A DNA stretch of 64,000 nucleotides from Escherichia coli (GTDB lineage: Bacteria; Pseudomonadota; Gammaproteobacteria; Enterobacterales; Enterobacteriaceae): assembly GCF_003334765.1 (NCBI RefSeq), contig NZ_QOWT01000009.1; one strand, given 5' to 3'. The position numbers and the translations under genes were made by a program. This document shows, one piece after another, positions 36,296-36,582 of the stretch; the stretch's first letter is position 1, and each line of letters begins with the position of its first letter. The notes beneath the pieces were generated by a model, which had not been told where the DNA came from, made no database searches, and saw only the letters and a program-made list of their open reading frames with translations.

Positions 36296-36582
36296 GATCG
36301 GTAAGCCGGATAAGGCGCTCGCGCCGCATCCGGCAACGGTGCCAGATGCCTGATGCGACGCTTGCGCGTCTTATCAGGCCTACAAATTCCCGCACCCTCC
36401 GTAGGCCGGATAAGGCGTTTACGCCGCATCCGGCAACGGTGCCGACTGCCTGATGCGACGCTTGCGCGTCTTATCAGGCCTACAAATTCCCGCACCCTCC
36501 GTAGGCCGGATAAGGCGTTTACGCCGCATCCGGCAACAGTGCCGACTGCCTGATGCGACGCTCGCGCGTCTTATCAGGCCGC
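36296..36582. repeat. Tandem REP/BIME array: about three copies of a ~100-bp unit, each holding two inverted REP motifs
   Basis: Near-identical units starting about 36305, 36405 and 36505 (gccggataaggcg...gcctgatgcgacgcttgcgcgtcttatcaggcctacaaattcccgcaccctccgtag). Confidence 0.9.

Follow-up and report, generated by a model that had tools for sequence, protein, structure and literature searches.

Two families of paired REP element, distinguished in the Gilson/Bachellier classification as set out by Ton-Hoang et al. 2012 (PMC3333891), are the closest described relatives of the array analyzed here. BIME-2 elements are extragenic, consist of y and z2 REPs in inverse orientation with a short linker, occur in tandem, are well conserved within a locus, and vary in copy number between strains; such variation at a given locus is already a published property of the class. 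BIME-1 elements (RIP/RIB elements) pair a z1 with a y REP and are present as a single copy; their conserved L linker is long and often includes an IHF site. The closest single locus is REP325 of Escherichia coli K-12, described by Qian et al. 2015 (PMC4550694) as six 77-bp Y-linker-Z2 repeats with five identical U motifs between them, lying between yjdM (phnA) and yjdN (phnB), where phnA and phnB are the older gene names. Its transcription was inferred in that study to start at the yjdM promoter. The two papers name the parts differently: the y-z2 linker is "l" and the inter-unit spacer "U" in Qian et al. 2015, whereas Ton-Hoang et al. 2012 call the linker "S" and the flanking motifs "s", "l", and "r".

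The functional data on REP325 at the RNA level come from one preprint, which deals with the six-unit K-12 allele only (Harris et al. 2026, doi 10.64898/2026.03.23.713779). Deletion of REP325 in K-12 shifted the yjdM/yjdN RNA ratio from 35 to 1, with yjdM down (log2 fold change, −1.74) and yjdN up (log2 fold change, +3.36), and it also altered growth. On a plasmid without REP325, yjdN was ∼8-fold higher. Transcript ends formed a ladder inside the array, the main product reaching about four hairpins, and bicyclomycin raised read-through from 23% to 39% with the full array only, two- and four-hairpin fragments being unaffected. REP325 was not recovered in an in vitro screen for Rho binding, as the same preprint points out, and the stabilizing effect that it describes depended strongly on context and expression level (∼3-fold at the native locus versus ∼160-fold on a plasmid). 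Its authors concluded that the array has a dual role, stabilizing the upstream message and attenuating the downstream gene.

The window analyzed here is a stretch of 64,000 nucleotides from E. coli (contig NZ_QOWT01000009.1). On its + strand it contains yjdM (positions 35951 to 36286), an open reading frame with an in-frame ATG at 35951 that encodes a 111-aa zinc-ribbon protein, and yjdN (36644 to 37087), which by open reading frame and annotation encodes a 147-aa VOC-family protein; phnC and phnD lie further downstream. Comparison with the K-12 locus gave yjdM the same length as b4108 (336 nt), and the name yjdM was taken from the RefSeq annotation under the BLAST matches. The two genes are co-oriented, and the 357-nt gap between them holds the repeat array, just where a sequence-only reading of the window had placed it under the older names phnA and phnB. 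The array is the 3′ untranslated region (3′ UTR) of the upstream gene, yjdM. The yjdM stop codon is separated from the first REP tetranucleotide by 14 nt (TTGTATTGTGATCG; 36287 to 36300, + strand) that are identical in the window, K-12, MC1061, ET450, ST131, and O157. Between the array and the yjdN start codon lies unique sequence (36584 to 36643, + strand) that contains the yjdN ribosome-binding region and is identical to K-12. Upstream of yjdM, a sigma-70-like promoter match (CCGACA-17-TATAAT; 35855 to 35883, + strand), recognized by its consensus, is the probable origin of sense-strand transcripts that cross the array.

Tandem Repeats Finder resolved a single array at 36301 to 36580 (period, 100; 2.8 copies; 95% matches; score, 502), and an independent repeat search placed three in-register copies at 36298, 36398, and 36498, spaced by 100 and 100. 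The sequence-only reading had described a unit of ∼100 bp repeated about three times, located at 36296 to 36582 with unit starts near 36305, 36405, and 36505. Those positions were correct to within a few bases, the copy estimate is borne out by the 2.8 copies (the third unit lacks the trailing spacer), and the periodicity on which that reading hinged is present. Each 100-bp unit runs GTAG, a y palindrome of 30 nt, a linker of 13 nt, a z2 palindrome of 32 nt, CTAC, and a spacer of 17 nt (AAATTCCCGCACCCTCC). The y palindromes occupy 36305 to 36334, 36405 to 36434, and 36505 to 36534, and the z2 palindromes occupy 36348 to 36379, 36448 to 36479, and 36548 to 36579; both are imperfect, with 14-nt arms that are 86% complementary. 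Within a unit the palindromes are inverted, GTAG standing 5′ of y and its complement CTAC 3′ of z2, a placement that confirms the earlier description of two REP palindromes in opposite orientation.

The three units are all read on the + strand. Unit 1 (36301 to 36400) opens with GTAA and continues with y, linker, z2, CTAC, and spacer; unit 2 (36401 to 36500) has the complete layout; and the terminal unit 3 (36501 to 36583) has GTAG, y, linker, and z2 followed by CGCC in place of CTAC, with no spacer. The outer ends of the array are thus degenerate (GTAA at 36301 and CGCC at 36580). The 77-nt cores of the units (36304 to 36380, 36404 to 36480, and 36504 to 36580) differ from each other by 2 to 9 of 77 nt. 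Between them lie two identical 23-nt spacers (36381 to 36403 and 36481 to 36503, + strand) that correspond to the U motif of Qian et al.; positions 36384 to 36400 equal 36484 to 36500, so that AAATTCCCGCACCCTCC occurs twice. On the sense strand this inter-core spacer is rich in C and poor in G (10 C and 2 G of 23 nt), and it had no predicted fold (0 kcal/mol).

Predicted RNA folding of the array region gave a z score of −8.95 against shuffled sequences, far beyond chance. Each 77-nt core was predicted to form two hairpins at −42.4 to −42.8 kcal/mol (z = −4.4 to −5.5), with values of −42.4 kcal/mol for unit 1, −42.8 kcal/mol for unit 2 (z = −4.83), and −42.8 kcal/mol for unit 3; the sense-strand hairpins come to about −21 kcal/mol each.

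An Rfam scan of the + strand returned three matches to RF02564, naRNA4 (CssrE), scoring 95, 111, and 106.7 bits for units 1, 2, and 3 against a gathering score of 59.5, and these matches span model positions 1 to 77 of 77. The minus strand scored 53 to 55 bits, below the gathering score. In a unit-by-unit comparison with K-12 MG1655, the cores of the window had 0 mismatches to K-12 units 1, 2/4, and 6, that is, to naRNA1, naRNA2 (the same sequence as naRNA4), and naRNA6, and the flanks were likewise identical over the 14 nt at the head and the 63 nt at the tail. The MG1655 locus itself has 5.8 copies at period 100 and six Rfam hits, and the window corresponds to this six-unit array minus exactly 300 bp. 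Where MAFFT placed the 300-bp gap is arbitrary inside a tandem array; the unit-by-unit comparison shows which units are present. The two loci share position, orientation to the genes, flanks, the cores of units 1, 2/4, and 6, and a spacer that is the U motif. They differ in that the window has 3 units, 6 hairpins, and a 357-nt intergenic region, as opposed to 6 units, 12 hairpins, and 657 nt in K-12. The window lacks K-12 units 3 and 5 as well as one of the two copies of unit 2/4, and its C-rich spacers number two versus five.

In light of these identities, it is close to certain that the element is a three-unit allele of the E. coli REP325/naRNA1-6 locus; because the sequence is identical to the published units, this assignment is effectively irrefutable. 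The element is an ortholog of K-12 REP325, with which it agreed in every defining feature compared at the sequence level. It is already known, and it differs from the published REP325 in length only. The sequence-only reading of a REP/BIME array was right in essence, and it is refined here to BIME-2 and specifically to REP325/naRNA4, which had gone unrecognized; because this is a named and heavily studied element, the feature is less novel than was then supposed.

The array belongs to the BIME-2 class. It has y followed by inverted z2, with GTAG before y in units 2 and 3 (GTAA in unit 1) and CTAC after z2 in units 1 and 2 (CGCC in unit 3); the linker is short, at 13 nt; the tandem copies are conserved (2.8 copies at 95% match); and copy number varied between strains in a sample of 59 genomes. 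Nothing essential separates it from the BIME-2 family save the degenerate outermost GTAG and CTAC. With BIME-1 it shares an intergenic pair of inverted REPs, but the array is tandem, has a 13-nt linker, and lacks an IHF consensus: WATCAANNNNTTR had no match in the array and only two in the whole window, at 25209 and 37931. The short linker, the tandem copies, and the absent consensus rule out an IHF-binding BIME-1. The earlier suggestion that such arrays can bind IHF is not supported for this one, because no IHF consensus occurs in the array and IHF sites are a property of the BIME-1 L linker.

Palindromic repeats at regular spacing also recall a CRISPR array, which is ruled out because the internal spacers are identical to each other; in addition, each 100-bp period contains two different palindromes and, unlike a CRISPR array, this one occupies the short interval that separates two co-oriented genes in a single operon. 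The earlier statement that the array is not CRISPR therefore stands. In a consensus scan of the + strand from 36287 to 36643, no hairpin had a T-run behind it; the sequence next to the hairpins on the 3′ side is CTACAAATTCC or GCCTCTCATC. An intrinsic (Rho-independent) terminator, which would require a GC-rich hairpin directly followed by a T-run, is ruled out. Open reading frames of 56 to 66 aa and longer antisense ones cross the array, and PGAP sometimes annotates a "hypothetical protein" or a frameshifted pseudogene at this position. We treat protein coding across the repeats as spurious: the products are Arg-rich translations of GC-rich palindromes, and their length tracks copy number.

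The measured features, namely, sense-strand hairpins, no intrinsic terminator, and C-rich spacers on the sense strand only, fit a role at the level of RNA. We consider it probable that the array is a sense-strand hairpin element of the 3′ UTR that stabilizes yjdM and attenuates yjdN, partly via Rho, and this is the best supported of the proposed roles. Sense transcription from the yjdM promoter would run through the array, and each 77-nt core of the RNA would then fold into a y and a z2 hairpin, both very stable. Lined up in this way, the hairpins would block 3′-to-5′ exonucleases and so stabilize the upstream yjdM message; they would also act as leaky stops in series that reduce read-through into yjdN, an attenuation that would be partly Rho dependent in the full K-12 array. 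Like the REP-stabilized 3′ ends of other operons, the array offers stable GC-rich sense-strand hairpins directly 3′ of a coding sequence, with stabilization of the upstream mRNA seen in K-12. It differs from them in that the multi-unit array of K-12 has a second effect, a partly Rho-dependent attenuation of the gene downstream. The earlier suggestion that such arrays terminate or stabilize transcripts is supported by the published experiments on the six-unit K-12 allele.

By analogy with that allele, we infer that the three-unit allele would act on yjdM and yjdN in the same way. It probably keeps the hairpin barrier but depends less on Rho, since its C-rich unstructured spacers, presumably the places where Rho engages, number two instead of five. 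Since the two- and four-hairpin fragments of Harris et al. showed no Rho dependence, the Rho component may be absent altogether in the allele of the window.

To follow unit number at this locus across the species, a query made of the two flanks alone was searched against 5,426 complete E. coli genomes, and the distance separating the flanks was taken as the intergenic length. The query matched in 5,418 of the 5,426. Units were counted, to the nearest integer, in 59 records sampled evenly along the ranked matches. Thirty-seven of the 59 had one unit; two units were found in 3 records, three in 1, four in 2, five in 7, six in 7, and seven in 1, and one further record had six units plus an IS1 insertion. 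Intergenic lengths in these 59 genomes fell within 3 nt of 156 + 100n, with two exceptions, one ∼10 nt shorter and the other the one with IS1. The locus thus ranges from 1 to at least 7 units in 100-bp steps, with one unit in about 60% of genomes, and the variation between strains foreseen from the sequence is borne out. Because about 60% of E. coli genomes have a single unit, a long array is not required for the role of the locus. The three-unit allele is rare (roughly 1 to 2%). Among the best matches, at least 25 records of complete genomes carried it; they came from pigs, dogs, cattle, and humans, and their flank haplotypes differed (99.0 to 100% identity). Over 10 kb of upstream sequence, many unrelated strains are 100% identical.

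Individual alleles point to gain and loss of whole units. ET450 has the K-12 array plus an in-register second copy of unit 3. MC1061 has two units, the second of which is chimeric, with a y and linker of the unit-2/4 type joined to a z2 of the unit-6 type. O157:H7 has two units, and ST131 has a single y-linker-z2 element. A 39-nt junction containing the spacer was found in 2159 of the 5426 genomes, at 1 to 8 places per genome, and the number of places fit the number of units minus one in every strain cross-checked: 1 in O157:H7 and in the two-unit CP131_Sichuan, 2 in the three-unit 1000C-3, and 4 in MG1655, which has five spacers, one of them a variant that the search cannot seed. From this agreement the spacer appears to be specific to this locus, and if so, arrays grow and shrink locally and not by insertion from elsewhere. 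Length would change by in-register gain or loss of whole 100-bp units, through unequal recombination or replication slippage, possibly aided by the REP-associated transposase TnpA-REP, and new insertions from elsewhere would not be involved. Harris et al. 2026 discuss REP gain and loss across strains in general terms, and a search of the text of that preprint by term found no tabulation of unit number at REP325. Assemblies of the K-12 lineage disagree with one another: the MG1655 reference and TG1 have 6 units; EMG2, "MG1655-pvir", and GM4792 have 3; and MC1061 and OV2 have 2. The three-unit assemblies among them are identical to the allele of the window. This disagreement reflects either real instability in laboratory lineages or assembly collapse of near-identical internal units, and each of these processes would leave the unit set of the window.

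Several other roles have been or could be proposed for such an array, and the RNA-level, nucleoid, gyrase, selfish-REPIN, and ribosome-stalling roles are not mutually exclusive. One possibility, doubtful in our judgment, is that the array is a strong, transcription-independent site of DNA gyrase binding and cleavage, mainly at the y palindromes, with more sites as units are added; such a site could coexist with the RNA role. The array falls within the BIME-2 definition, and genome-wide, Sutormin et al. found gyrase cleavage sites to be overrepresented in BIME-2, with y preferred over z2 and with an increase when transcription was blocked by rifampicin. However, only a subset of BIME-2 elements was cleaved in that study, two of its supplementary files do not mention yjdM, yjdN, phnA, or REP325, and no phenotype is linked to gyrase at the yjdM-yjdN locus. 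The earlier proposal that gyrase may bind here would accordingly be an extrapolation to this array from the behavior of its class.

A similarly doubtful alternative sees in the array, for the most part, a selfish or neutral set of REP doublets (REPINs) that TnpA-REP maintains; array length would drift by recombination, and any effect on yjdM and yjdN would be a by-product. TnpA-REP binds REPs with GTAG on the 5′ side and a mismatch in the stem, cleaves at linkers and at the inverted partner, and can assemble multiple REPs by strand exchange in vitro (Ton-Hoang et al. 2012, PMC3333891). The internal doublets of the array carry GTAG/CTAC and imperfect stems with 86% complementarity; its outer ends are degenerate. 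A RAREFAN prediction in a preprint lists REP325 as a RAYT-associated REPIN. Copy number runs from 1 to at least 7 with no preferred length seen outside related lineages, and in one strain an IS1 is inserted at the locus. Against a mainly selfish cluster, the spacer junction appears to be locus specific, which argues that units do not arrive from elsewhere, and the degenerate outermost tetranucleotides (GTAA and CGCC) leave the array as a whole without intact recognition ends. REP325 and its fragments are stable on plasmids, and Harris et al. 2026 describe the altered yjdM/yjdN RNA and growth that follow deletion in K-12.

The array might also act as a translational brake, the first REP hairpin stalling terminating ribosomes and provoking tmRNA-mediated rescue, with less YjdM protein as the outcome; we regard this as improbable. 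The yjdM stop codon ends at 36286, and the REP tetranucleotide and the stem begin at 36301 and 36305, ∼14 to 18 nt after the stop. The study underlying REP-induced ribosome stalling is that of Liang, Rudd, and Deutscher (2015). A second preprint states a distance limit for such stalling, and the stem itself, which begins 18 nt past the stop, lies at the border of that limit. At the RNA level, REP325 was measured to have a positive effect on yjdM.

We consider it very improbable that the role of the locus is the organization of the nucleoid. In that model (Qian et al. 2015, PMC4550694), the units are processed to 77-nt naRNAs, here naRNA1, naRNA2/4, and naRNA6, which together with HU bridge distant, cruciform-forming REP DNA sites and condense the chromosome. 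The three cores of the window score above the Rfam naRNA4 threshold, and core 2 is identical to naRNA4. Qian et al. reported HU binding, decondensation of the nucleoid upon REP325 deletion, rescue by plasmid-borne naRNA4, and bridging of cruciforms by HU plus naRNA4 in atomic force microscopy (AFM). However, antisense RNA and unrelated terminators were equally effective in that work, indicating low specificity. The preprint of Harris et al. 2026, whose authors include one from the original HU/naRNA4 work, confirms moderate-affinity binding by HU and disputes the role in compaction: it reports no stable ternary complex of HU, cruciform DNA, and naRNA4, a nucleoid volume unchanged by deletion or overexpression of REP325, and Hi-C maps without long-range REP-REP contacts. 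The single unit at this locus in most E. coli genomes also tells against it. The HU/naRNA4 model of nucleoid condensation is now disputed.

An artifactual explanation for the count of three, that a longer array collapsed in assembly to its first, one internal, and last units, fits the near-identity of K-12 units 2 to 5 (which differ by ≤3 nt), the unit set of the window (1, 2/4, and 6, exactly as collapse would leave it), and the discordant K-12-lineage assemblies, but we give it very little credence, and a purely artifactual origin is unlikely, given that the same allele recurs in the at least 25 complete-genome records from several hosts and differing flank haplotypes, that the chimeric unit of MC1061 and the duplicated unit 3 of ET450 are recombination signatures, that BIME-2 copy-number variation at a locus is established (Ton-Hoang et al. 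2012), and that a 300- to 600-bp repeat is easily spanned by long reads.

We return to the array as a 3′-UTR hairpin element of variable length. It is an ordinary, already explained feature, and its value here is modest, as context for published work. That work takes REP325 as its model REP, and its experiments were all performed on the six-unit K-12 allele, which lies near the upper end of the natural series; the commonest form has one unit. A more speculative idea, which we hold only tentatively and think rather unlikely to be correct, is that unit number is a heritable dial: the yjdM:yjdN ratio and the share of Rho-dependent termination would rise stepwise with units, and array length would shift fast enough to differ among laboratory descendants of K-12. 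The series would run from 1 unit in most E. coli through 2 in O157:H7 and 3 in the window and would reach 5 to 7 or more in many of the genomes with the most K-12-like flanks. Two hairpins and one unstructured C-rich spacer would come with every further unit, and the six-unit "model REP" would be an atypical extreme of a natural allelic series. With about 60% of genomes at one unit and the rest at 2 to at least 7, conclusions that depend on length, such as the Rho dependence seen with the full array only, may fail to extend to the majority of strains. As a natural series, the existing alleles offer ready material for testing how hairpin number tunes 3′-UTR stability and read-through.

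Assemblies of K-12-lineage laboratory strains are inconsistent in the number of REP325 units that they carry between yjdM and yjdN. Six units are present in the MG1655 reference and in TG1 assemblies, three in the EMG2, "MG1655-pvir," and GM4792 assemblies, and two in the MC1061 and OV2 assemblies. This disagreement could reflect either fast, real change in unit number or collapse of the array during assembly.

Within longer versions of the array, automated NCBI annotation places a gene, labelled either as a "hypothetical protein" or as a pseudogene with a frameshift. One such call spans positions 800 to 1111 of the locus sequence from ET450, a strain with a K-12-type array and a second copy of unit 3, and a similar call was found in one further genome match. 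These gene calls are almost certainly spurious open reading frames running across the GC-rich palindromes. In a single strain, N921 (NZ_CP176484.1), an IS1A-family element was found between yjdM and yjdN beside an array of six-unit size, giving an intergenic span of 1,433 bp. This insertion is in line with REPs serving as targets of insertion sequences.

Other RNA elements were detected in an Rfam scan of the window. The enterobacterial small RNA STnc630 (RF02052) was matched over its full length on the minus strand at 30473-30638 (181.8 bits; gathering score, 55), and a selenocysteine insertion sequence, SECIS_2 (RF01988), was matched on the plus strand at 63431-63485 (87.1 bits; gathering score, 70). 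The SECIS_2 match implies that a predicted selenoprotein gene lies close to the window end.

Other REPs are found in the window beyond the phn region, since the y-type core GCCGGATGCGGCG has two more exact plus-strand matches, at 17776 and 44386. Within the phn region, a second, single BIME occupies 39054-39140 in the gap between phnD, which ends at 39049, and phnE. It consists of an inverted REP pair, GTAGGTCGGATAAGACG... and ...CCTTATCCGGCCTAC, and its naRNA4 match in the same Rfam scan (39056-39136, minus strand) scored 69.1 bits, slightly over the gathering score of 59.5. In the adjacent phnE (39092-39942), the coding sequence is broken into two reading frames that overlap (39092-39724 and 39574-39942), and a tandem 8-mer, GCTGGCGT GCTGGCGT, is located at 39560. 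Over 4 kb the window is colinear with K-12, in which phnE is an annotated pseudogene, with 2 mismatches and no indels. The locus looks like the cryptic phn allele of the K-12 type.
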